This document shows, one piece after another, positions 7,649 through 51,059 of a stretch of DNA of 64,000 bases (position 1 is the stretch's first letter; every line of letters begins with the position of its first letter). The notes beneath the pieces are model-generated. The model worked only from the letters and a program-made list of their open reading frames with translations, was not told where the DNA came from and made no database searches. Both the position numbers and the translations under genes were made by a program. The stretch comes from Thermomicrobiales bacterium (GTDB taxonomy: Bacteria > Chloroflexota > Chloroflexia > Thermomicrobiales > UBA6265), in contig DAOUDE010000108.1 in NCBI GenBank assembly GCA_034431475.1, positions 48,882-112,881 on the forward strand, given 5' to 3'.

Positions 7649-8950
7649 ATGGACGACAACGATGCTGCCTCCCGTGATCCGCTCACCGCACTCTCCGCGT
7701 TTCCCCTGCTCGATGCCCTTTTCGGACGGCGTTCCCGCCGCTTCGGGCTGGGAATGTCGATTCCCGATGGCCCGCTCGCCTACACCTCAGCCCATGCACC
7801 GCTACCGCTGAGCGACCTGGAGCGCACCCTGCTTGTCCTCTGCGGCGCGGGCGTCAGCGGCTGGCACACCGGGATGGAGCACACCACGAGCGGCGACCCT
7901 GATCGCGGCTGCAATTACGCCATGCGCTACACCGGCCGCATGACGCCCACTCTCGCTGGCGTTGGCTCGCCAGAACTGATCGTCAGCGACGATTCCGGCA
8001 CGTTCATGACCCGGTTCCGGGATCTCGATGCCGAGCGGATGCGACAGATCCAGGGCAGCCAGAACCTGCATCGCTTTCTCGGCGCGGTTATGGCGCACAC
8101 CGTCCCACTCTCAGCCGCGCGTGTGGATATCCCTGCATCCGCCCCATATGTGAGCCCGCACAATATCTGGAACGCCAACCGCCCCGGCGCCACGCTCTTC
8201 ATTCCGGTCGTAGATCTCACGCAGAACCTGCTTGAACTCATCACCATCTATCTCGGAGCTGGCGCGTTGCCGTACGACACGGTGCGGGAGCGCCCCTGCG
8301 GCGATTTTGCGCCATACATCGAGGCCGGGCTCGTGGACCCTGCCAAACGCATGCCTATCTTCGATGCGGAACAGTATGTCCTGAGCGCCGGGGCAGCAGA
8401 AACAGCGGTGATGTGCCACAACCTCGTCCTCACCATGCAGGCGATGGGATTGGGCGGCTGGATGTTCACCGGCATCAACCCGCCCAGCCTCCTCGGAGCG
8501 CACGCGGAGCAGGGCATCCCGGGCCTCGGCTTTCGGTTCGTCCGCGATCCACGCTGGACCCAGCCAAATCCCGTTGGGCTGGATGGCGTCTACGAGGCGT
8601 ACTGCCCGCCGTATTGCACGGATATGCGCGAGGCGGCGCAGCGCTTTGCGGCGCGCAAGTTTGGCCCCGGCGGCGCCTATGATCCCGCGACACCCGGGCC
8701 CTATCGCGACAACGCCGGCGTGAAAGCCGCGGTCGAGCGCTACAGCCCCGAGCTCGTGGCCATGTTGGGCGAGACCGCCCAATACCTCTACGACACCTAC
8801 GGGAAGTTCCCCGCCACCGTCCCCAGCATCTACGTGCGCATCTACGCCCAGGCCCAACATGTCGATCTGGACTACTACGACCACTTCCTGGGCCCGGACG
8901 CCCTCCTGGACACCCATCGCGAACACATGGCGAGATGGCACGCGAGCTAG
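7649..8950 (+). CDS. Divergent nitroreductase-fold protein (function unknown)
   Basis: 433 aa. The N-terminal FGRRSRRF and the late AVMCHNLVLTMQAMGLGGWMFTG resemble the two signature segments of the nitroreductase superfamily. They are separated by a long insertion. Confidence 0.55.
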   Translation: MDDNDAASRDPLTALSAFPLLDALFGRRSRRFGLGMSIPDGPLAYTSAHAPLPLSDLERTLLVLCGAGVSGWHTGMEHTTSGDPDRGCNYAMRYTGRMTPTLAGVGSPELIVSDDSGTFMTRFRDLDAERMRQIQGSQNLHRFLGAVMAHTVPLSAARVDIPASAPYVSPHNIWNANRPGATLFIPVVDLTQNLLELITIYLGAGALPYDTVRERPCGDFAPYIEAGLVDPAKRMPIFDAEQYVLSAGAAETAVMCHNLVLTMQAMGLGGWMFTGINPPSLLGAHAEQGIPGLGFRFVRDPRWTQPNPVGLDGVYEAYCPPYCTDMREAAQRFAARKFGPGGAYDPATPGPYRDNAGVKAAVERYSPELVAMLGETAQYLYDTYGKFPATVPSIYVRIYAQAQHVDLDYYDHFLGPDALLDTHREHMARWHAS

Positions 8951-9004: not shown

Positions 9005-10693
9005 CTATGCCCCCAGCGGCTCGTACCCATAAACCAGGTCCGGGTCGCCTCCATCCGCCGTCACCGTCAGCACCACGTGAGACTGGCCGTCATCACCCGC
9101 TTCAAAGGTAAAGACCCCCTGCGGTGGGAACCCGGACAGCGGTGGATCGACAATCAGGTAGCCAGCCACCGAGCCATCCTCGGCCATCTGCGGCAGCAGC
9201 GCCGAGCGGTAGGGGCCGGAAGTAAAGGTCAGCGAGTCGCCCCGCAGCGTCAGCGTCAGGTCGCCCAGGGCCGGGTTGGTGTAGGTTCCCAGGAACGGCG
9301 TCACCGCTGCCGGGTCGACCTGCCCGACAGTCTCCAACAACGCCGCTCGCCCGCTCGCGAGCCCGGCGAGGTTCGTCTCGAGCAGCGCATCCATCGTTGC
9401 CGGCTGATCGAAAAGCAGTTCCAGCAGCCGGAACACGATGGCGTAGATCAACTGCCCGGCAGTCCCGGACCCGTTGGTCAGGACCACCACCCCCAGCTCG
9501 GCTTCGGGCAGGAAGGTCACCAGCGACGAGAACCCCAGCGTGCCCCCACTGTGCCAGATCGTGCGCTGCCCACCGTATGCGCCAACCACCCAGCCCAGGC
9601 CGTAATGTTGGGCGAAGGCGGCCATCTCGGGCGGTCCCCCCGGCGCGGCCGGCAAGGCCACCCCTGGCTGCCAGGTGCGCTCCAGGTTCTCGGCCGAAAC
9701 CACCTGCCCGCCATCCGGCCCAACCCCGTGCCCAAGCTCGGTCTGCACGTAGCGCACCATTTCCCGCGCACTCGACCAGAGCGCGCCCGACGGCGCCACG
9801 GGAACCAGCCAGGTGTCGTCCATCATCAGCGGCACCGGGTGAACCTCCCCGAAGAGATCCGGTGCATGGGGCGAGGCATAGTCGTTGCCGGCCACCACTT
9901 CGCTGAGGTCGTAGGTGGTGCGCGGCATCCCGATGGAGTTGAGCACCCGGTCACGCAGCGCAATCGCGTAGGAATGCCCCAGGGCCTCTGCCGACCCGCC
10001 GTCGGCAACACCGGCGGCAAAGCCCCCGGCCGCGACCAGTTGGTTGTTGTACTGGTACTTCTCCCCGAACGGCGCGGTCAGTGGCAGGTCCGCCATGCTG
10101 GCGATCATCCGCTCCGGGGTCAGCTCATTGGCCGGGAAGATGAACTCGAGGTCGCGCCGGGGCAGCCCACTACAGGCGCAGAAGGCATCCTCCACGGTCA
10201 GGCGCGGCGTGAGGTCGGCATCCTCGACGGCGAATGTTGGCAACAGGTCGATGAGCGGGGTATCCCAGGTCACCTGTCCGGTGTCCACCAGGGTCGCGAC
10301 GAGCAGGGAACTGAAGGACTTGGTGACCGAGCCAATCCGCAGCAGCGTATCCGCCGTAACGGGCTCCGGACGCCCCAGTTCGCGGACGCCAAACCCCTGC
10401 AGAAAGGCGACCTCCCCACCCTGCACCACCCCGACCGCAACGCCCGGCACGCCCAGTTCGGCGACCTTCTCCGCGACATAACGCTCGAAGGTCGCCAGGT
10501 GCTCCCCGGTCAGTGGCAGCGGCGCGACCCCCGTCAGATCGGGGAGAGCAGCGGCTGCCGGCGTGGCCTCCTGCGCGGGTGTGGCACGTTGCGCGAAGCC
10601 GCTGGCCGCCATCGTCGTTGCGGCAATGCCGGCCACTCGCAGGGCCCGACGGCGGGAGATGGCAGGGGAGTGTCCGGAACAAGACGTCGGCAT
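9005..10693 (-). CDS. Secreted serine hydrolase, beta-lactamase (class C / PBP4*-like) family
   Basis: Tat-like leader (SRRRALRVAGIAATTMAASGFA), catalytic GSVTKSF (SxxK), a YNN second motif, and a C-terminal extension of about 150 aa. Confidence 0.85.
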   Translation of the reverse strand: MPTSCSGHSPAISRRRALRVAGIAATTMAASGFAQRATPAQEATPAAAALPDLTGVAPLPLTGEHLATFERYVAEKVAELGVPGVAVGVVQGGEVAFLQGFGVRELGRPEPVTADTLLRIGSVTKSFSSLLVATLVDTGQVTWDTPLIDLLPTFAVEDADLTPRLTVEDAFCACSGLPRRDLEFIFPANELTPERMIASMADLPLTAPFGEKYQYNNQLVAAGGFAAGVADGGSAEALGHSYAIALRDRVLNSIGMPRTTYDLSEVVAGNDYASPHAPDLFGEVHPVPLMMDDTWLVPVAPSGALWSSAREMVRYVQTELGHGVGPDGGQVVSAENLERTWQPGVALPAAPGGPPEMAAFAQHYGLGWVVGAYGGQRTIWHSGGTLGFSSLVTFLPEAELGVVVLTNGSGTAGQLIYAIVFRLLELLFDQPATMDALLETNLAGLASGRAALLETVGQVDPAAVTPFLGTYTNPALGDLTLTLRGDSLTFTSGPYRSALLPQMAEDGSVAGYLIVDPPLSGFPPQGVFTFEAGDDGQSHVVLTVTADGGDPDLVYGYEPLGA

Positions 10694-10784
10694 CGTGGCG
10701 CATCCTTTGTACGTCGTTGCTGCGGGTCCAGGGGCCGTAGCGGAGCATACCTTGCACGAGGGCAGACGCTCCTGCAGGAGCTTC

Positions 10785-10918
10785 GGGAAGACGCTGCGCT
10801 TGGGAGTAAGGGAATACGGAGTGACGAACTGGCGCCATTGGCCTGTACTCCGTCGTTCTCCTTACTCCCTTATTCCCTGAGCGCGTGAGCGCGTCTTTCC
10901 GAAGCGCAGCGTCTTCCC
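10785..10918. repeat. Compound inverted repeat (MITE/REP family C-like) in the leader of the serine hydrolase gene
   Basis: gggaagacgctgcgctt (10785-10801) pairs perfectly with aagcgcagcgtcttccc (10902-10918). The inner arms gggagtaagg..acggagt / actccgt..ccttactccc also pair. Contains the ccctgagcgcgtgagcgcgtc motif also seen at 14906-15000 and 33735-33790. Confidence 0.65.
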
Positions 10919-10920
10919 GC

Positions 10921-11024
10921 GAAAAGCAAAACGCCGACAAGTCCAGCGCTTGCGCGCCATCCCCGTCGGCGTTTGCTTCACCGGGCGTTTCGGGGATTGC
11001 TCCCGTCCGTTTCTGGTGTGCAGT
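10921..11024 (-). ncRNA. Candidate ~100-nt structured RNA (copy 1), sRNA or cis-leader
   Basis: Lies downstream of a consensus-like promoter. Conserved core caccagaaacggacgggagcaatccccgaaac with a GGGA-GCAA-UCCC hairpin. Ends in the stem gcaaacgccgac/gtcggcgttttgc followed by TTTT. Near-identical copy at 39478-39579. Confidence 0.5.
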
Positions 11025-11025
11025 G

Positions 11026-11054
11026 AACGTACACCCTGCGTGACCCCTTGTCAA
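11026..11054 (-). promoter_or_regulatory. Sigma70-like promoter of the candidate RNA, copy 1
   Basis: The minus strand reads TTGACA (11054-11049), a 17-nt spacer, then TACGTT (11031-11026). Confidence 0.55.
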
Positions 11055-11417
11055 GACCCTGTGAGCGCCTCACGACCTGCTGGAGGGCGCACCCAGCCCC
11101 ACCTGGCGCGGGCTCCCGGCGGTCTGGCTTGCACTCGCCAGCGGAGTGCCCGGCAGCGCGTCCACCATGAGCCGCTGTTGACCTGGTGCAACGCACACGC
11201 TGCTGGCGGTGCGGTTATTCGCCACCAATCATGCCACTGCTCGCGGCTGGTGAAGGCGTCCCGTTCCACCGTTCCCGGAACCATGCTGACCCTCCTGTGC
11301 GGCCAGCGTTGTCAGGATGCGTGCGGCGCGCCGCAGAGTGGTCACTGGCCCACACCGAGTCTGCCCCGCCTGGCCGAAGAAGGCAGCTAGGGGAGGTACG
11401 CAACTTTGCCCGGCCGG

Positions 11418-14868: not shown

Positions 14869-14905
14869 GAGTATCAGTCGCTAAGACTCACCGCGAACCG
14901 CTCCT

Positions 14906-15000
14906 TCACCCCCTGAAGGCGAAGCCCGGCACCCCCTGAGCGCGTGAGCGCGTCACCCCCTGAGGCCGCAGGCCGTCACCCCCTGAGCGAAGCGTCTCCC
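14906..15000. repeat. Tandem array (about 4.5 units of 21-24 bp) of tcaccccctgag + mini-hairpin, just 3' of cphA
   Basis: Units read: caccccctgaaggcgaagcccgg / caccccctgagcgcgtgagcgcg / tcaccccctgaggccgcaggccg / tcaccccctgagcgaagcgtc / tccccctcacg. Confidence 0.7.
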
Positions 15001-33596: not shown

Positions 33597-33632
33597 ACAA
33601 AAAAGCCCCTCTCCCGCGCATCGGGAGAGGGG
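33597..33632 (-). terminator. Intrinsic terminator downstream of cysA (REP family B unit)
   Basis: The minus strand reads cccctctcccg-atgcg-cgggagagggg followed by CTTTTTTGTT. Nearly identical to the hsdR terminator unit and in the same orientation. Confidence 0.65.
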
Positions 33633-33790
33633 TTGGGGTGAGGGTTTCTCGTTTGGGGGAGGCTTCCACCGGGGCGCAAAGCCCTCATGCAGGCGAAGAC
33701 TACTCACTGCCGCGTGGCCTCCTCCCTTCACCCCTCGTGCTCCTTATTCCCTCATTTCCTTATTCCCTGAGCGCCGCAGCGCGTCTCCCC

Positions 33791-34846
33791 CTATCTCACC
33801 CCCACCCACCGGTCCGCCCCGTCCGCCGCGCCAATCGAGACCATGTTCGTCGCGCTCGCCGGGCGCACCGGCGGAAAATCCCCCGGCTCCCAGCCCGGCC
33901 GCCGGCTCAGGCTCAGGTCCACGCCCACCGTATCCCCCGCCACCGGGCGCACCCGCTGCATCTCATCCCGCGTCAGTTGCGCCCACACCCGCTCGCCGTT
34001 CACGTGCAGCGTCAGCTCGATGCGATTATCGAAGCCCAGCGTAATCACGCGGTCCACCGTCGCGGCGATGCACCCCTCCTGCTCCGGCGTGCAGATCACC
34101 ACCTCGTGCGGGCGAATGTAGGCGTCGCCGATGCGGTTCACCTTGCCCACGAAGCTCATCACGAACTCCGTCGCCGGGTGCTCGTAGAGCTCATGCGGCG
34201 CGCCCACCTGCTCGATGCGGCCCCGGTTCATCACCACGATGCGGGAGGCCACTTCCATCGCCTCCTCCTGGTCGTGCGTCACCAGCACCGTCGTCACGTG
34301 CACGTTCTCGTGCAGCCGCCGCAGCCAGTCGCGCAGCTCCTCGCGCACCCGCGCGTCCAGCGCCCCGAACGGCTCATCCAGCAGCAGCACCCGCGGCTCC
34401 ACCGCCAGCGCCCGCGCCAGCGCCATGCGCTGCCGCTGCCCACCCGAGAGCTGCGCCGGGTAACGCTCGGCGTAGCCATCGAGCTGCACCAGGTGCAGCA
34501 GCTCATCCACCCGTCGCCGGATCTCCACCTTCGGCGTCTTGCGGATACGCAGGCCAAACCCCACGTTGTCGCGCACCGTCATGTGCTTGAACGCCGCGTA
34601 GTGCTGGAACACGAACCCCACGTTGCGGCGCTGCGGCGGCAGCGATGTCGCCGCCACCCCGTCGATGAAGACCTCGCCCGAATCCGGCTGATCCAGCCCC
34701 GCGATGGCGCGCAGCAGCGTGCTCTTGCCGGAGCCACTCGGCCCCAGCAGGGCCGTCAGCGAGCCATCCGGCACCTCCACCGACACGTCATCGAGCGCGC
34801 GGAAGTCACCGTAGCTCTTGCGCAGATTGTGAACCGTAATGCCCAT
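33791..34846 (-). CDS. cysA: Sulfate/thiosulfate ABC transporter ATP-binding protein
   Basis: ATG at 34846 ([15 protein letters not shown]). Walker [10 protein letters not shown], signature LSGGQRQR, Walker B LLLDEP, and a C-terminal TOBE-like domain. Confidence 0.9.
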
Positions 34847-34889
34847 CAGTCGCTCCCGTTTCTCGTGTCTCGATCGTCTCCCCATCGGC

Positions 34890-35045
34890 TCCCCTCTCCC
34901 GATGTGCGGGAGAGGGGCTGGGGGTGAGGGCTTACTCCTCCGGCTCCCCTCTCCCGCGCATCAGGAGCGGGGCTTGGAGCGAACGTTTCTCGTCCGTCTC
35001 CCCTCTCCCTGCGCACAGGGAGAGGGGCTGGGGGTGAGGGTTTTT
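34890..35045. repeat. Three REP family B hairpins inside the cysW-cysA intergenic space
   Basis: ctcccctctcccgatgtgcgggagaggggctgggggtgaggg; ctcccctctcccgcgcatcaggagcgggg; ctcccctctccctgcgcacagggagaggggctgggggtgaggg. Confidence 0.8.
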
Positions 35046-35857: not shown

Positions 35858-36683
35858 ACAGGGAGATGGTCAGCAAGACACACAGGGAGATGGCCAGCAA
35901 CACCACCGCAATCGCGGACGCAGCCGTGATGTTGTCGTTCTCGACCTGGCTGTAGATGCGCACCGCCGCCACTTCCGTCTCGAAGGGGATGTTGCCGGAA
36001 ATCAGCACCACCGAGCCGAACTCGCCGATGGCGCGGGCAAATCCCAGGCCAATCCCCGCCAGGATGGCCGGCGTCAGGTTCGGCAGCACAATCAGGCGGA
36101 ACGTGGTCCAGCCGCTGGCGCCCAGCGCCTTGGCGGCCTGCTCCATCTCCTTGTCCATCTCGACCAGCACCGGCTGCACCGCCCGCACCACGAAGGGGAG
36201 CGTCACGAACAGCAACGCCAGGATCACGGCCGCCACGGTGTACGCGATGTTCACGCCGATGGGGCTGCGCACGCCGTACATGGCGATCAGCGTCAGCCCC
36301 GCCACAATCGTCGGCAGCGCAAAGGGCAGATCGATCAGCGCCGACATGAAATCCTTGCCGGGGAACGCGTCCCGCACCAGGACCCACGCGATGAGCGTGC
36401 CGAAGACCGCGTTGATCAGGGAAACCAGCAGCGAGGCGCCCAGGCTGAGCCGCAGCGCCGCCAGTGCCTGCGGCGTGGTCACCGACGCCCAGAAGCCATC
36501 CCACCCCTCCGAGGTCGAGCGGAAGACTACCGCCGCCAGCGGAATGAGCACAATCACGCTCAGGTAGGCGGTGACCACGCCGACGGTCAGCGGCGTGCCC
36601 ACCGAAAGCCCGCGCGCGGCGGGCGTGGTCGTCGCTGGGGGCGCGGCCAGAGCCGCACCCACCGGGTAACTGGTTGCGCTCAC
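35826..36683 (-). CDS. cysT: Sulfate ABC transporter permease
   Basis: 285 aa. Multi-TM with an EAA loop (MEQAAKALGASGWTTFRLIVLP). Overlaps cysW by 32 nt and sbp by 4 nt. Confidence 0.85.
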   Translation of the reverse strand: MSATSYPVGAALAAPPATTTPAARGLSVGTPLTVGVVTAYLSVIVLIPLAAVVFRSTSEGWDGFWASVTTPQALAALRLSLGASLLVSLINAVFGTLIAWVLVRDAFPGKDFMSALIDLPFALPTIVAGLTLIAMYGVRSPIGVNIAYTVAAVILALLFVTLPFVVRAVQPVLVEMDKEMEQAAKALGASGWTTFRLIVLPNLTPAILAGIGLGFARAIGEFGSVVLISGNIPFETEVAAVRIYSQVENDNITAASAIAVVLLAISLCVLLTISLFERRSRKHDQ

Positions 36684-37702
36684 TGCTGCTGCACCACCGC
36701 CACGATGCCGTTGTCCGGATCGAAGAACTTCGTGGTGACCTCATCCCAACCGCCAAGCTCATCGATGGTGAACAGCTTCTCCGGTGTCGGGTAGGTGTCG
36801 GTGAACTCCGCCTGGATCTCCGGCAGCAGCGAGCGGTAGCCCTTCTCGGCGAAGATGCGCTGGGCATCCGGCGTGCGCAGGTAGTTGATGAACTCCTGCG
36901 CCTTCTCCGGGTTGGCCGACTCCGTCACCACCGCCACCGGGTTCTCGATCAGCAGCGTCTCGGCCGGAATCACGTACTCGAACGTCTCACCCTTCTGCTG
37001 CGCCGTGATCGACTCGTTCTCATAGGCCAGCAGCACGTCACCCTTGCCGCCGGCAAAGGTGGCCAGCGCCTCCCGCGCGCTCTTGTCCTGCACCGGCACG
37101 TGGGTGAAGAGCTGCCGCAGGTACTCCTGCGCCTCTTCTTCCGTCTTGCCCTGCTGCAACTGCGCGCCCCAGGCCGCCATGATGTTCCAGCGTGCGCCGC
37201 CAGAGGTCAGCGCGTTCGGCGTGATGACTTCGACGCCTTCCTTCAGCAAGTCGTCCCAGGTCTGGATCCCCTTCGGGTTCCCCTCGCGCACCGCGAAGAC
37301 CACCACCGAGTCGGTCACCATGCCCTTGAACTCGTCGGCGTTCCAGTCCTCGGCCACCAGGCCCGGCTCGATCAGGCGGGTGATATCCGGCGCCAGCGAG
37401 AGCGCCACGATATCGGCCGGCAGACCACTTTCCACGGAACGGCTCTGCTCGGTGGACGCCGCGAACGAGGTCTCGAACTGGACGTTCGCGCCCTCCGGGG
37501 TCGCCTGGAAGAGCGGGATGATCTCCTCGTAGGCCTCACGCGGGGTGGAGTAGGCGACGAGGGTCAGGGTGACCGCGTCCTGCGCCGCCACCGGCGCCCA
37601 CCCGAAGCGCAGCGCCGGGGCCGCCATAGCTGCAGCCGCAGCGCCCATCAGCGCGGAGCGGCGGGTGAGGGTCCTGGCGAGCAGATCAGCACGTGCGTGC
37701 AT
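36680..37702 (-). CDS. sbp: Sulfate/thiosulfate-binding periplasmic protein
   Basis: ORF from TTG 37726; the ATG at 37702 is preferred (AAAGGA Shine-Dalgarno). Tat-like leader TRRSALMGAAAAAMAAP. Family-typical body (TLVAYSTPREAYEEIIP...). Confidence 0.85.
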   Translation of the reverse strand: MHARADLLARTLTRRSALMGAAAAAMAAPALRFGWAPVAAQDAVTLTLVAYSTPREAYEEIIPLFQATPEGANVQFETSFAASTEQSRSVESGLPADIVALSLAPDITRLIEPGLVAEDWNADEFKGMVTDSVVVFAVREGNPKGIQTWDDLLKEGVEVITPNALTSGGARWNIMAAWGAQLQQGKTEEEAQEYLRQLFTHVPVQDKSAREALATFAGGKGDVLLAYENESITAQQKGETFEYVIPAETLLIENPVAVVTESANPEKAQEFINYLRTPDAQRIFAEKGYRSLLPEIQAEFTDTYPTPEKLFTIDELGGWDEVTTKFFDPDNGIVAVVQQQ

Positions 37703-37744
37703 CGCGAAACGTCCTTTCAGCAACAAAGCCTATTTTGTCTGTAA

Positions 37745-38018: not shown

Positions 38019-38047
38019 ACTCTACAAGATTGGTGGACTTTTGTCAA
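38019..38047 (-). promoter_or_regulatory. Putative distal promoter (P2) upstream of sbp
   Basis: The minus strand reads TTGACA (38047-38042), 17 nt, then TAGAGT (38024-38019). The spacer contains a GTCCAC half-site (GTCCAC-N7-GTAGAG). Confidence 0.4.
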
Positions 38048-38355: not shown

Positions 38356-38409
38356 GGGTATGGCCCGACAGCGGAGCCGGTATGGCCCGACAGCGGAGCC
38401 GGTATGGCC
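38356..38409. repeat. 22-bp tandem duplication (about 2.4 copies)
   Basis: ggtatggcccgacagcggagcc repeated twice, plus a partial ggtatggcc, about 50 nt upstream of the methyltransferase start. Confidence 0.8.
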
Positions 38410-38455: not shown

Positions 38456-38992
38456 GTGAACCACGCTGATCACGTGCGGCTGATTGCGCCCGGTGTGCCG
38501 GCCCATGCTGGCGGACGCTGGGCCGAGTTCGGCGCGGGGACCGGCCCATTCACGCTGGCGCTCCGCGATGTCGCTGGCCCGGAGGTCGAGATTACGGCCA
38601 TCGACCGCGACGCCGGGGATTTGCGTGAGCTACGGCGCGCCATGGAGCGTGCCTTTCCCGGCACGCGGCTACACACCTGTGCCGCCGATTTCACGCGCCC
38701 GTTGGAACTGCCCCCACTGGATGGCATCCTCGCCGCCAACTCGCTGCACTACGTGCGCGACCAGGTTGCACTTCTCCGCCGCTGGCGCAGCTTCCTTGCC
38801 CCCGGCGGCCGCCTGATCGTGGTGGAGTACGACACAGATCGCGGCAACCATTGGGTACCCTTCGCCCTCTCGTTCGAGACGTTCACCCAACTCGCGCAGG
38901 AAGCCGGATTCACCGCGCCAGAGCGCATCGGCACGCAGCCGTCACGCTTTCTGGGCGCGTTCTTCTCAGGGCTGGCGTACACAGCGGACTGA
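38456..38992 (+). CDS. Class I SAM-dependent methyltransferase
   Basis: 178 aa, GTG start. Motif I AEFGAGTGPFTLAL; later ILAANSLHYV and LAPGGRLIVVEY. Confidence 0.8.
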   Translation: MNHADHVRLIAPGVPAHAGGRWAEFGAGTGPFTLALRDVAGPEVEITAIDRDAGDLRELRRAMERAFPGTRLHTCAADFTRPLELPPLDGILAANSLHYVRDQVALLRRWRSFLAPGGRLIVVEYDTDRGNHWVPFALSFETFTQLAQEAGFTAPERIGTQPSRFLGAFFSGLAYTAD

Positions 38993-39336: not shown

Positions 39337-39477
39337 GTATTCAGCAGGCCAGGTGAAGAGCTTTAGCGCAACCCCGAGTCCTGCTTCGTCCGGCTGGACA
39401 ATCTGCTGGTGAATAGCAACCTGGAGAGCGCGAGCGTGGTGGCTGCGAGCGAGGCCTGAGAGACGCTGCGTCCGCGC

Positions 39478-39579
39478 ACAGCAAAACGCCGACAAATCCT
39501 GTGCTTACACACCAGATCCATCGGCGTTCGCTGCACCGACTGTTTCGGGGATTGCTCCCGTCCGTTTCTGGTGTGTAGT
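39478..39579 (-). ncRNA. Candidate ~100-nt structured RNA (copy 2)
   Basis: The 5' ~50 nt are essentially identical to copy 1 (cactacacaccagaaacggacgggagcaatccccgaaac). The terminator stem is kept (gcgaacgccga/tcggcgttttgc) while the loop sequence differs. Confidence 0.45.
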
Positions 39580-39580
39580 G

Positions 39581-39609
39581 AACGTACACCCTGCGTGACG
39601 ACTTGTCAA
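39581..39609 (-). promoter_or_regulatory. Sigma70-like promoter of the candidate RNA, copy 2
   Basis: The minus strand reads TTGACA (39609-39604), 17 nt, then TACGTT (39586-39581). Both hexamers are identical to copy 1. Confidence 0.5.
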
Positions 39610-39733
39610 TACCTTGCCAACAACAATCCCCGTAACCATGCAGCCGTTCCCAGCGGCCGTGTTGAGCGAAGGGGCAGGCGCAACGCCCCCGCATCGCCTT
39701 CAGCCTGTCGCCGTTTCACCGCACGCCACGGGG

Positions 39734-39932
39734 GTCGTCCTGAGCGAAGTCGCAGGACCTCGTTTCGCGCTACCCAGGTTGGAGGCGGCGTCCACATTTC
39801 AATGTCATCCTGAGCCCGCTGGCGAAGGATCTCGGCCCAGCCTCGTGCTCGTAGAGCCCTTGCGGCTCGGCCTGTAACCAGTCCGCAGCCCCCGGACAGG
39901 TGTCATCTCGAGCGCACGCCAGAGATCTCGGC
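39734..39932. repeat. Three REP family A copies
   Basis: gtcgtcctgagcgaagtcgcaggacctcg (39734); gtcatcctgagcccgctggcgaaggatctcggccc (39802); gtcatctcgagcgcacgccagagatctcggc (39900). Confidence 0.7.
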
Positions 39933-40168
39933 ATGACCAGCAGCGCTGGTGCGCGGAAGCGCGTACAAACCTGCCGGCGACCCGGCGGTGATCCCTCCGT
40001 TCCTGCCTGTGCGGCTCACGCAACCGTGAAGGTCAGCCGCACTCTTGCAGGTTGCAGGGCGAATGCATTCTCGGTATCTCATTGGCACGCGCCTGTATTG
40101 ACAGCCAGCACGGCCCACCCTAGCCTCCGCGTGACCAGCAATCGCCAGAAACACAGGGAAGCGAACTC

Positions 40169-45637: not shown

Positions 45638-45792
45638 GCCCTCACCCCAACCCCGCTCCCGCGCATCGGGAGCGGGGCTCCGTTTGTTCGGAGCCGACGC
45701 CAGACTCGGCGTAACTGATCGGGTCTCCAGATGGCGACACGCCGTTCGTCTCGCCGCTCCCGCGCACCGGTTGAGGGGCTGGGGGCGAGGGC
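45638..45792. repeat. REP family B copies in the ssuC-ssuB intergenic space
   Basis: gccctcaccccaaccccgctcccgcgcatcgggagcggggctccg (45638-45682) and cgccgctcccgcgcaccggttgaggggctgggggcgagggc (45752-45792). Confidence 0.7.
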
Positions 45793-47978: not shown

Positions 47979-48944
47979 CTAGGATTGCGGCAACAACGTC
48001 GCCGAGAAAATGTCGACCTTCTCGGGAAGCAAGCCGACGCCAAGAAAGAGATCGGCGAGTTGCTGCTGCTCCGCCGCGATCTCCGGGGTCAGGCGCTCAA
48101 CGCCGATCTCGCGCCGTTGCTCGACCGTCTTGATGACGTCCTCCGGCAGGCCCGTCTCCCCCGCAATCAGTTGCGCGACCTCGTCCAGGTTGTCCCGTGA
48201 CCATGCTTCAGACGCGTTCAGCGTGGTCTCCAGGACGTCGATCACCTCCGTGTTGCCGGTGACAAACGGGCGCGCAGCGACATAGAAGGCCCGAGGTTGG
48301 CCAATCTCGCGGCTGGTCGCGATCAGGCGCGGCCCGGACGCGGCTTCCTCGGCGGCGAGATATGGGTCCCAGATCGCCCAGGCATCGACGCTGCCGCCCT
48401 CAAAGGCGGCCTTCGCGTCGGCAGGCAGCAGGAAGGCCGGCTCGACATCGCCCCAGTCGAGCCCCACTGACTGCAGCGCGCGCACCAGGAGGGCATTTGC
48501 GCTGGAACCCTTGGCGACCGCGACCGTCTTGCCCTGCAGATCAGCGATGGACTGGATGGCGGAGTCCTGCGGCGCCAGGATGCCCTGCAGTTCGCCATTG
48601 GCAACCGTCGCTAGCACGTAAACCAGGTCGGCGCCAGCCGCCTGCGCGAAGATCGGCGGCGGTGCGCCGACGTACCCCAGGTCAAGGGCGCCCGCGTTCA
48701 AGGCTTCCAACATCGGTATGCCAGCCTGGAACTCCGTCCAGGTTACGGTGTAGCCAAGGTCCTCCAGGCGCTTCTGGAAATCACCCTGCGCCTTGAGCAC
48801 CGTCAGGCTGACGCCGCCCTTCTGGTACCCGATGCGCGCCTCCTTACCCTGGGCGCGTGTGGACAGGGCGGGAACCTGGGCGGCAGCCAGGGCCGCCGCG
48901 ACGCCAAGCAGAATCTGACGGCGGTTCGAATGGATCTGCGACAC
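47979..48944 (-). CDS. ssuA: Sulfonate ABC substrate-binding protein (paralogue 2)
   Basis: GTG at 48944 after GGAGG. Tat-like leader [36 protein letters not shown]...[27 protein letters not shown] parallels the upstream paralogue. Confidence 0.8.
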
Positions 48945-48990: not shown

Positions 48991-49998
48991 TCAGGAAGTA
49001 GGGGTAGCAACCGTGAGGACGGCGCTGGCGATATCGACCTGTTCGGGGAGCAGACCCAGATCGAAGAACATGTCGGCCAGTTCCTGCTGTTCCGCGACAA
49101 TTTCCGGCGTGATGGGCTCGATCCCGTAGGCCGAGCGCTGCTCGACTTTGAGCTGAGTGGCCACATCAATACCGGTCTCACCGGCCACAAGGTCGGCCAC
49201 TTCCTCGGGGTGCGCGCCCGCCCAGGCATCAGAGGTTTCCAGCGCGGCGATGATGAGCGCAAGGGCCTCCGCGTGTTCCGTCGCGAAGGCGCGGGAGGCC
49301 AGGTAGAAGCTGCGGTTGGTGTGGTTGGCGGTCGTGCCGTCGGCAATGGAGCGAGCGTTGCTGGTGTCCTCTGCCACAGCGGCGTAAGGATCCCAGATCG
49401 CCCAGGCATCGATTGCACCGCCATCGAAGGCCGCCTTGGCATCGGCCGGCAGCAGGAAGACCGCCTCGACATCGTCCCAGGCCAGGCCGGTGCTCTCCAG
49501 CGCATAGGCGAGGAAGGCGTTGGCGCTGGAGCCCTTGGCGACGGCCACCTTCTTTCCTTTCAGGTCTGCGACCGTCTGGATCGTCGAATCCTGCGGTACC
49601 AGAATCCCTTCCTCCAGGGGAGAAGGCGTGGCGGCGGCGGCGTAGATGAGATCTGCGCCGGCGGCCTGGGCGAAAATTGGCGGCGGCGCGCCAGTGGTGC
49701 CGAAATCGAGCGCGCCGGCGTTCAGGGCCTCCAACAGGGGCACCCCCGCCTGGAACTCGGTCCAGGTCACGGTGTAACCGAGCGGCTCCAGCGCAGGACC
49801 CAGCAAATCCTGCGCTTTCAGCAGCAGCAGGTTGGACGAGCCCTTCTGGTAGCCGATACGGACCTCTCCGCCGTCCGCGCGGGCAGACGCAGGAAGGACC
49901 GCGAACGACGGGAGCGCGGCCACGCCAGCCGCAGCCAGGCTTGCCCGCAACAGTGTGCGCCGGGTCCGCCGGAACGCCACGAGATGAGACCGGGTCAT
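48991..49998 (-). CDS. ssuA: Sulfonate ABC substrate-binding protein (paralogue 1)
   Basis: 335 aa. Tat-like leader FRRTRRTLLRASLAAAGVAAL. VRIGYQKGSSNLLLLKAQ...[24 protein letters not shown]. Confidence 0.85.
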   Translation of the reverse strand: MTRSHLVAFRRTRRTLLRASLAAAGVAALPSFAVLPASARADGGEVRIGYQKGSSNLLLLKAQDLLGPALEPLGYTVTWTEFQAGVPLLEALNAGALDFGTTGAPPPIFAQAAGADLIYAAAATPSPLEEGILVPQDSTIQTVADLKGKKVAVAKGSSANAFLAYALESTGLAWDDVEAVFLLPADAKAAFDGGAIDAWAIWDPYAAVAEDTSNARSIADGTTANHTNRSFYLASRAFATEHAEALALIIAALETSDAWAGAHPEEVADLVAGETGIDVATQLKVEQRSAYGIEPITPEIVAEQQELADMFFDLGLLPEQVDIASAVLTVATPTS

Positions 49999-51030: not shown

Positions 51031-51059
51031 ATCATATGGCATTCCCGAGAGGATGTCAA
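51031..51059 (-). promoter_or_regulatory. Putative distal promoter (P2) upstream of ssu
   Basis: The minus strand reads TTGACA (51059-51054), 17 nt, then TATGAT (51036-51031). This is the best consensus match in the window. Confidence 0.55.

Follow-up and report, generated by a model that had tools for sequence, protein, structure and literature searches.

A candidate family of small RNA genes with a conserved promoter and terminator in the Thermomicrobiales

A short module consisting of a promoter-like region, a structured domain and an intrinsic terminator hairpin occurs twice on the minus strand of a 64,000-nucleotide stretch of Thermomicrobiales DNA (referred to below as the window), and each of these copies is probably an independent gene whose product, a non-coding RNA of about 95 nt, would act in trans as a member of a small paralogous family, likely by base pairing with mRNAs. 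The family matches no family of the Rfam collection and, judged by its sequences, is best read as a new family of the ordinary bacterial small RNA kind. It provides a well-defined candidate small RNA for the Thermomicrobiales, with clean borders, a promoter and a terminator, three paralogues and a near-invariant 5' domain, which is ready for an Rfam-style seed alignment and which also serves as a worked example of the putative promoter type of the organism, TTGACA-17-TAnnnT. No new principle is opened by this family, and lineage-specific small RNAs without a known target are common among bacteria. To our knowledge, little work has been devoted to regulatory RNAs of the Chloroflexota, and a literature search returned no small RNA reported for the Thermomicrobiales. 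Experiments are limited because all members recognized so far come from uncultured organisms.

Layout, promoter and distribution of the module

An independent, blind search for repeats in the window recovered the two copies as a pair of 145 nt with 85% identity, which occupies 10917-11061 and 39472-39616 of the minus strand, in line with an earlier note on this DNA that had placed a second copy of the module at 39478-39610. Both copies share the same layout, in which TTGACA-17 nt-TACGTT is followed by a predicted transcribed part of about 95 nt and then by a long terminator hairpin. A 34-nt core of the module occurs exactly twice in the window against zero expected occurrences (0 matches in 100 shuffles).

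In copy 1, an upstream box GCTCACA (11060..11066, minus strand; family consensus GTTnACA in the alignment of 13 modules) precedes the -35 hexamer TTGACA (11049..11054, minus strand) and, beyond a 17-nt spacer, the -10 hexamer TACGTT (11026..11031, minus strand). The small RNA predicted from the fold and the covariance model would cover about 95-98 nt at 10922..11019 of the same strand, and comprises a 5' domain (10979..11018) and a terminator hairpin of about 21 bp (10926..10976) followed by a U-rich tail (10921-10925). The corresponding features of copy 2, also read from the minus strand, are the box GTTGGCA (39615..39621, from the 13-copy alignment), the hexamers TTGACA (39604..39609) and TACGTT (39581..39586), both placed by sequence, alignment and promoter-pattern count, and a predicted small RNA (39477..39574, from the fold and the covariance model) with its terminator hairpin at 39481-39531. 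As placed from the position of the -10 hexamer, the RNA would start at A11019 in copy 1 and at A39574 in copy 2, and the 3' end of the copy 1 RNA would fall within the U-run.

The -35 and -10 hexamers are invariant in all 13 copies of the family that were aligned, and the 17-nt spacer is fixed in length with several of its positions variable. Invariant hexamers around a variable spacer of fixed length are the usual signature of a working promoter, and the region is here treated as a putative one. The -10 hexamer TACGTT matches TATAAT at only three of six positions, and a strict sigma-70 scan called the promoter of neither copy. The looser pattern TTGACA-N16-18-TAnnnT occurs five times in the window compared with 0.08 expected occurrences, a 60-fold excess over chance, and the site at 40098-40126 (plus strand) lies 43 nt before the start codon of an M1 peptidase gene. 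Because the pattern is enriched in this way and one of its sites precedes the peptidase gene, TTGACA-17-TAnnnT looks like the real promoter type of the organism. Three exact matches to TTGACA-N16-18-TAnnnT exist besides the two copies, at 38019-38047 (minus), 40098-40126 (plus) and 51031-51059 (minus); in addition to the one before the peptidase gene, another of these three is found about 290 nt upstream of a sulfate-binding-protein gene (36680-37726), a distance that could accommodate a long leader.

Conservation among the 13 aligned sequences begins at a GTTnAC(A) box situated about 11-12 nt upstream of the -35 hexamer, in which the letters T23, T24 and A26 are nearly invariant. Measured to the matching letters of the -35 hexamer, the box is 11 bp further upstream, and the two together make up a direct repeat, nTTnAC-N5-nTTGAC, in 12 of the 13 copies. 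Direct repeats with a period of one helical turn that overlap a promoter are the usual layout of response-regulator sites, and the GTTnAC box is possibly an activator site or a site of the UP type.

The family as presently delineated contains 13 distinct copies, three of which belong to the genome of the window and ten to six related Thermomicrobiales genomes or metagenome organisms, with a typical number of two or three copies per genome. The third copy of the window's genome is carried by contig JAXLWS010000003.1 of assembly GCA_046328355.1, in which the window corresponds to JAXLWS010000006.1, and lies at 8511-8620 of the locus designated L026. Over 8483-8620 of this locus, the copy displays a GCGA loop, and the 3' half of its terminator is duplicated in tandem, GCAAGCGTGCGATTTGTCGGCGTTTTGC being present twice. 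A search with an exact 20-mer of the core yielded eight more copies in three species-representative MAGs, namely KUW bin4 (two copies), 5H213 (three copies) and STL-CHL30 (three copies). Other copies were reached through their neighbouring genes, independently of the 20-mer: L022 and the truncated L023, both beside the M1 peptidase gene, the L026 copy itself, and a further variant represented in nine ENA assemblies (L036-L044).

Comparison of syntenic loci revealed no module beside peptidase genes of 83% (L024) and 57% (L021) identity, nor beside a dehydrogenase gene of 78% identity (L025). From these absences, the family looks narrow and would be restricted to a small clade of uncultured Thermomicrobiales (Chloroflexota). 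A metagenome scan in which the hairpin loop was left free returned nine matches, all of them due to chance and devoid of promoter or terminator, and zero matches to the module were obtained in viral, phage and plasmid collections.

Fold and conservation of the predicted RNA

The sense strand of both copies folds better than the reverse complement, which fixes the strand of the module. Copy 1 folds at -48.5 kcal/mol (z = -4.7 against shuffles) and scores 124 bits with the covariance model, and copy 2 folds at -45.6 kcal/mol (z = -5.7 against shuffles) and scores 128 bits. The extreme 5' end of the predicted RNA is engaged in P1 (CACC/GGUG), a 4-bp helix (11015-11018 with 10979-10982 in copy 1, 39570-39573 with 39534-39537 in copy 2) which closes a large internal loop consisting of AGAAACGGAC on one strand and CGAAACnnn on the other. 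Two GAAAC strands are arranged in this manner around P2 (10993-11004 in copy 1, 39548-39559 in copy 2), a GGGA/UCCC stem capped by GCAA. Two unpaired bases then separate the 5' domain from the terminator hairpin, which is followed by UUUUGC(U). The U-run of most copies corresponds to the UUUU within GUUUUGC, and the extra TTTT located after it occurs in copy 1 only.

All of the elements previously pointed out, i.e., TTGACA-17 nt-TACGTT on the minus strand of both copies, the CACC/GGUG and GGGA-GCAA-UCCC pairings and the arms of the terminator, are read directly from the sequence. Two details of the terminator had to be corrected: its stem comprises about 21 bp instead of the 12 bp initially proposed, and its apical part, which had been described as replaced by different sequence in the second copy, differs by point substitutions, several of which are compensatory.

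The borders of conservation coincide with the module. Among the 13 copies, conservation ends a few bases past the hairpin and the flanking sequences become unalignable. Copy 2 and its orthologues are 80-89% identical over the module, a value comparable to that of the adjoining peptidase gene (81-85%), and the intergenic DNA on either side aligns no better than noise.

In the model-based alignment, 98.4% of the cells pair, versus 35-45% when the partners are slid by one to three columns, and 98.9% of the cells of the terminator hairpin are paired across the 13 copies. Nine copies have A-U as the second pair of P1, three have G-C and one has G-U. The P2 stem is invariant and its loop reads GCAA in 12 copies and GCGA in the remaining one, the GNRA form being kept. 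Pairs changed on both sides amount to four, one in P1 and three in the terminator, the latter being G-C/A-U or C-G/U-A exchanges. These compensatory changes lend modest support to the predicted fold, since the 13 distinct sequences are few, related and often derived several at a time from the same genome, so that the covariation amounts to few events with P2 never varying, and since eight of the 13 copies were picked by an exact 20-mer lying inside the 5' domain, which forces part of the invariance of this domain. In the copies found without the 20-mer (five full and one truncated), a single loop change is observed in the 5' domain. Taken with the invariant hexamers and the confinement of conservation to the module, the compensatory changes in P1 and in the terminator support the earlier proposal of a promoter, a structured RNA and a terminator maintained by selection on RNA structure.

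Mode of action and comparison with known RNAs

As is usual for trans-encoded small RNAs, a promoter and an intrinsic terminator belonging to the module itself bound a short unit without conserved open reading frame, and conservation is confined to this unit, independently of the neighbouring genes. Transcription would proceed from the housekeeping-type promoter TTGACA-17-TACGTT, and the conserved GTTnAC box that precedes the -35 hexamer by one helical turn might allow the binding of an activator or some other modulation of the promoter. The 21-bp intrinsic terminator hairpin and its short U-tract would stop transcription, the hairpin supplying both the 3' end and the stability of the RNA. The almost invariant 5' domain, made of the 4-bp helix, the large internal loop, the GAAAC strands and the GNRA-capped hairpin, would represent the working part of the molecule, and the predicted RNA would act in trans through its unpaired GAAAC-containing strands, which would base-pair with mRNAs encoded elsewhere. 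Base pairing is favoured because it is the commonest mechanism for RNAs of such build. Against this proposal as a whole stand the poor match of the -10 hexamer to TATAAT and the shortness of the U-tract (UUUUGC). All sequences of the family are taken from MAGs or metagenome contigs.

With respect to the mode of action, the invariance of the whole domain of 24-28 nt, stem included, exceeds what a pairing seed needs and fits the recognition of a protein or a ligand equally well. The stand-alone RNA could work as a structured binding RNA whose 5' domain offers a specific site either for a protein, which would be sequestered or titrated as by CsrB/RsmZ or 6S RNA, or else for a small molecule, as an orphan aptamer acting in trans; this is an unlikely reading, to which a real chance must nevertheless be conceded. 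A block of at least 24 nt, comprising the strands of P2 and the flanks of the loop, is invariant in copy 1, copy 2, L022, L023 and L036, all of which were found without using this block, the sole change seen keeps the GNRA loop, and the duplicated GAAAC strands are symmetric about the hairpin. In addition, no mRNA target signal emerged when the 5' domain was confronted by RNAduplex with 40 start regions of the window, the mean energy being no better than that of random segments, although in such G+C-rich sequence this test is too weak to tell against base pairing. However, the sampled divergence is too small to separate constraint from recency as the cause of the invariance, and no known aptamer or protein-binding RNA family is matched in Rfam.

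A CsrA-sequestering RNA was considered in this regard. A sponge of the CsrA type is unlikely because only one of the four GGA motifs of the RNA is unpaired and one motif is lost in L005, L007 and L008. The predicted RNA resembles CsrB, RsmY and RsmZ as a stand-alone RNA with a terminator and GGA triplets, four in number here, but two of these triplets lie inside the terminator stem, one of them being unconserved, and the sites are far fewer than in the Csr/Rsm sponges. It is rather improbable that the 5' domain represents a new sequence-specific module for the recognition of a protein or a metabolite, and that the three genes specify an RNA of an undescribed kind, acting in trans as a sensor or a decoy. 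If true, the Chloroflexota would thereby gain their first defined regulatory RNA system, and the conserved direct-repeat box of the promoter would link the family to a dedicated regulator.

The comparison with known RNA families bears on the base-pairing and the binding readings alike. Rfam 15, whose models cover riboswitches, known small RNAs, ribozymes, 6S, SRP, tmRNA, Y RNA, Chloroflexi-1 and Cyano-1 among others, gave no match at gathering thresholds in the whole window. When the threshold was relaxed to E <= 10 for copy 1, copy 2 and L003, the matches fell far short of the thresholds and involved unrelated families. Most were models of eukaryotic miRNA precursors, located chiefly on the terminator hairpin or on a REP-like inverted repeat, a few belonged to other families (e.g., BjrC68 with 12.6 bits for a threshold of 39 bits), and no match to the 5' domain recurred across the three copies. 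The earlier note could assign the core to none of the riboswitch classes it had considered, and these scans likewise yield no credible family. ARAGORN detected no tRNA or tmRNA, and the resemblance of the hairpin to a tRNA or a T-arm was discarded on that account. A CRISPR-repeat-like or creA-like interpretation, suggested by the association of a hairpin with GAAAC, was also discarded, the window being devoid of a repeat array and no cas context being seen.

Multi-copy paralogous small RNAs encoded in trans and sharing a promoter are well known in bacteria, e.g., Qrr1-5, PrrF1/2, OmrA/B and AbcR1/2. The present family shares with them an intergenic location, a size of about 100 nt, an own promoter and a Rho-independent terminator, the presence in each genome of several near-identical, unlinked paralogues with conserved promoter elements, and a conserved 5' part associated with a terminator of more variable apex. 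It differs by the lack of any similarity of sequence or model in the Rfam scans, and by its occurrence in another phylum. The cyanobacterial Yfr2 family, or Cyano-1 motif, groups short multi-copy RNAs in which an A-rich GGAAACA motif is repeated in unpaired regions. The likeness resides in the multi-copy, short character of the RNA and in the repeated unpaired A-rich motif, GAAAC here and GGAAACA there, whereas the repeats of Yfr2 are found in hairpin loops and those of the present RNA belong to an internal loop, on the two sides of a single GNRA hairpin; moreover, the Rfam model gives no match even at E values up to 10, and the phylum is a different one.

Gene context and repeated DNA

The presence of several copies per genome at unrelated loci could also be accounted for by a repeated DNA element (a REP, a MITE-like element or a protein-binding palindrome) that multiplied through duplication or mobility rather than by an RNA gene, an explanation which is very improbable. 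It draws on the variable presence of the module at the peptidase locus, including its absence from L024 where the peptidase is 83% identical, on the local tandem duplication seen in one copy, and on the REP-like arrays found directly after the terminator in 6 of the 13 copies. Nevertheless, there are only about three copies per genome, and the borders of conservation show neither terminal inverted repeats nor target-site duplications. With such borders and three copies in the genome, the module is not MITE-like, contrary to the abundant, MITE-like copies that had been named earlier as an outcome unfavourable to an RNA gene. The module is, in addition, asymmetric and directional, with promoter hexamers at one end and a hairpin followed by a T-run at the other, its G-U pairs are meaningful for just one of the strands, and the viral, phage and plasmid collections offered no counterpart.

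The REP-like arrays consist of units of the form GGG[GA]A[GA]AC plus a short palindrome, e.g., GCGCTCACGCGC, in places with a long hairpin made of a purine arm and a pyrimidine arm. In the window, they occur at 10784-10919, where the arms of a 134-bp inverted repeat downstream of copy 1 were located (10784-10805 and 10898-10919), as anticipated in the earlier note, and similar arrays are found at about 14900-15000 and 33740-33800. The six copies followed by such arrays just past the small RNA terminator are copy 1, L002, L007, L008, L022 and L036, which belong to different loci. A strict boxA plus boxB hairpin motif was detected only beside the small RNA copies, and a looser inspection revealed units of the same type elsewhere in the window. 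The downstream hairpin was considered as a part of the module and rejected; because other parts of the window also contain arrays of this unit, the REP-like element is read as a separate family that prefers terminator-proximal DNA and does not form part of the gene. REP-like arrays follow the small RNA terminators more often than expected, which may reflect either an insertion preference or an ancestral link.

The module occupies at least four distinct genomic contexts. An M1 peptidase gene diverges from copy 2 and from its orthologues (L001, L007, L022, L023), all of which run toward convergent genes. The group formed by L002, L005, L026 and L036 is located after a gene of the hydroxyethylthiazole-kinase type, and either converges on a 2-hydroxyacid dehydrogenase gene or lies at a distance from it. 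Copy 1 precedes, by about 230 nt, a gene of the same orientation for a serine hydrolase of the beta-lactamase fold (9005-10693), with the inverted repeat in between as initially described, and the L008 copy is followed by a co-oriented DEAD-box helicase gene.

That the module could be a cis-acting leader, either an attenuator or a riboswitch, for a downstream gene such as the serine hydrolase gene is very improbable. The positions of copy 1 and of the L008 copy ahead of co-oriented genes would suit such a role, as would the structured domain that directly precedes the terminator, a compact arrangement reminiscent of transcriptional riboswitches and attenuators. However, the gene located downstream is not constant and is often not co-oriented, and the conserved alternative pairing and the model match that would be expected of these leaders are both lacking. 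Copy 2, L001, L007 and L022 run into convergent genes, L002, L005, L026 and L036 are convergent with or separated from the dehydrogenase gene, the co-oriented downstream genes are mutually unrelated, and between copy 1 and the hydrolase gene lies a long REP-like hairpin. A conserved switch between terminator and antiterminator was not found in the alignment, the sole candidate being the pairing of GAAACGCC with GGCGUUU in copy 1, which is not conserved. A leader or riboswitch is not supported, since there is no common downstream gene, often none that is co-oriented, and no conserved antiterminator. Of the two functions envisaged at the outset, the independent small RNA holds, whereas the cis-acting attenuator or riboswitch-like leader does not, the downstream genes being convergent or different from one locus to another. 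An independently transcribed RNA that would act in trans is the most economical and best reading of this variable context.

That the module encodes a small protein is most unlikely: one sense frame (…RVYVHCTPETDGSNPRN…) and a second frame starting at the TTG of the -35 hexamer are open across most copies, but open frames of this kind are common at such G+C content, six-frame translation of 11 copies yielded no frame with both a conserved start and a conserved stop, neither a conserved start codon nor a ribosome-binding site is present, the TGA of copy 1 is read through in other copies, copy 2 interrupts one of the frames, and third positions show no excess of substitutions, with stems changing pairwise in a compensatory manner.

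Several other repeats were recorded in the window. At 39625-39637 (plus strand), 15 nt upstream of the copy 2 promoter, CAATCCCCGTAAC matches the RNA core CAATCCCCGAAAC at 12 of 13 positions in inverted orientation; the match is weaker in the L007 orthologue and absent from L001, and may correspond to a decayed, head-to-head partial duplicate or to chance. Short repeat families are found at 25928-25977, 33597-33646, 34886-35042 and 45747-45788, and at 25783-25903. One repeat family consists of CCCCTCTCCC...GGGAGAGGGG hairpins followed by TGGGGTGAGGG, and another of GTGTCATCCTGAGC...GAAGGATCTCG units, which recur near 39735-39830 on the upstream side of copy 2. A 22-nt unit (GGTATGGCCCGACAGCGGAGCC) is perfectly repeated in tandem (2.4 copies) over 38357-38409, just upstream of the methyltransferase gene at 38456. 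Finally, two pairs of adjacent paralogous genes, 20628-21913 and 22901-24174, about 2.27 kb apart, and 48361-48584 and 49385-49608, about 1.02 kb apart, both display 71-76% DNA identity.
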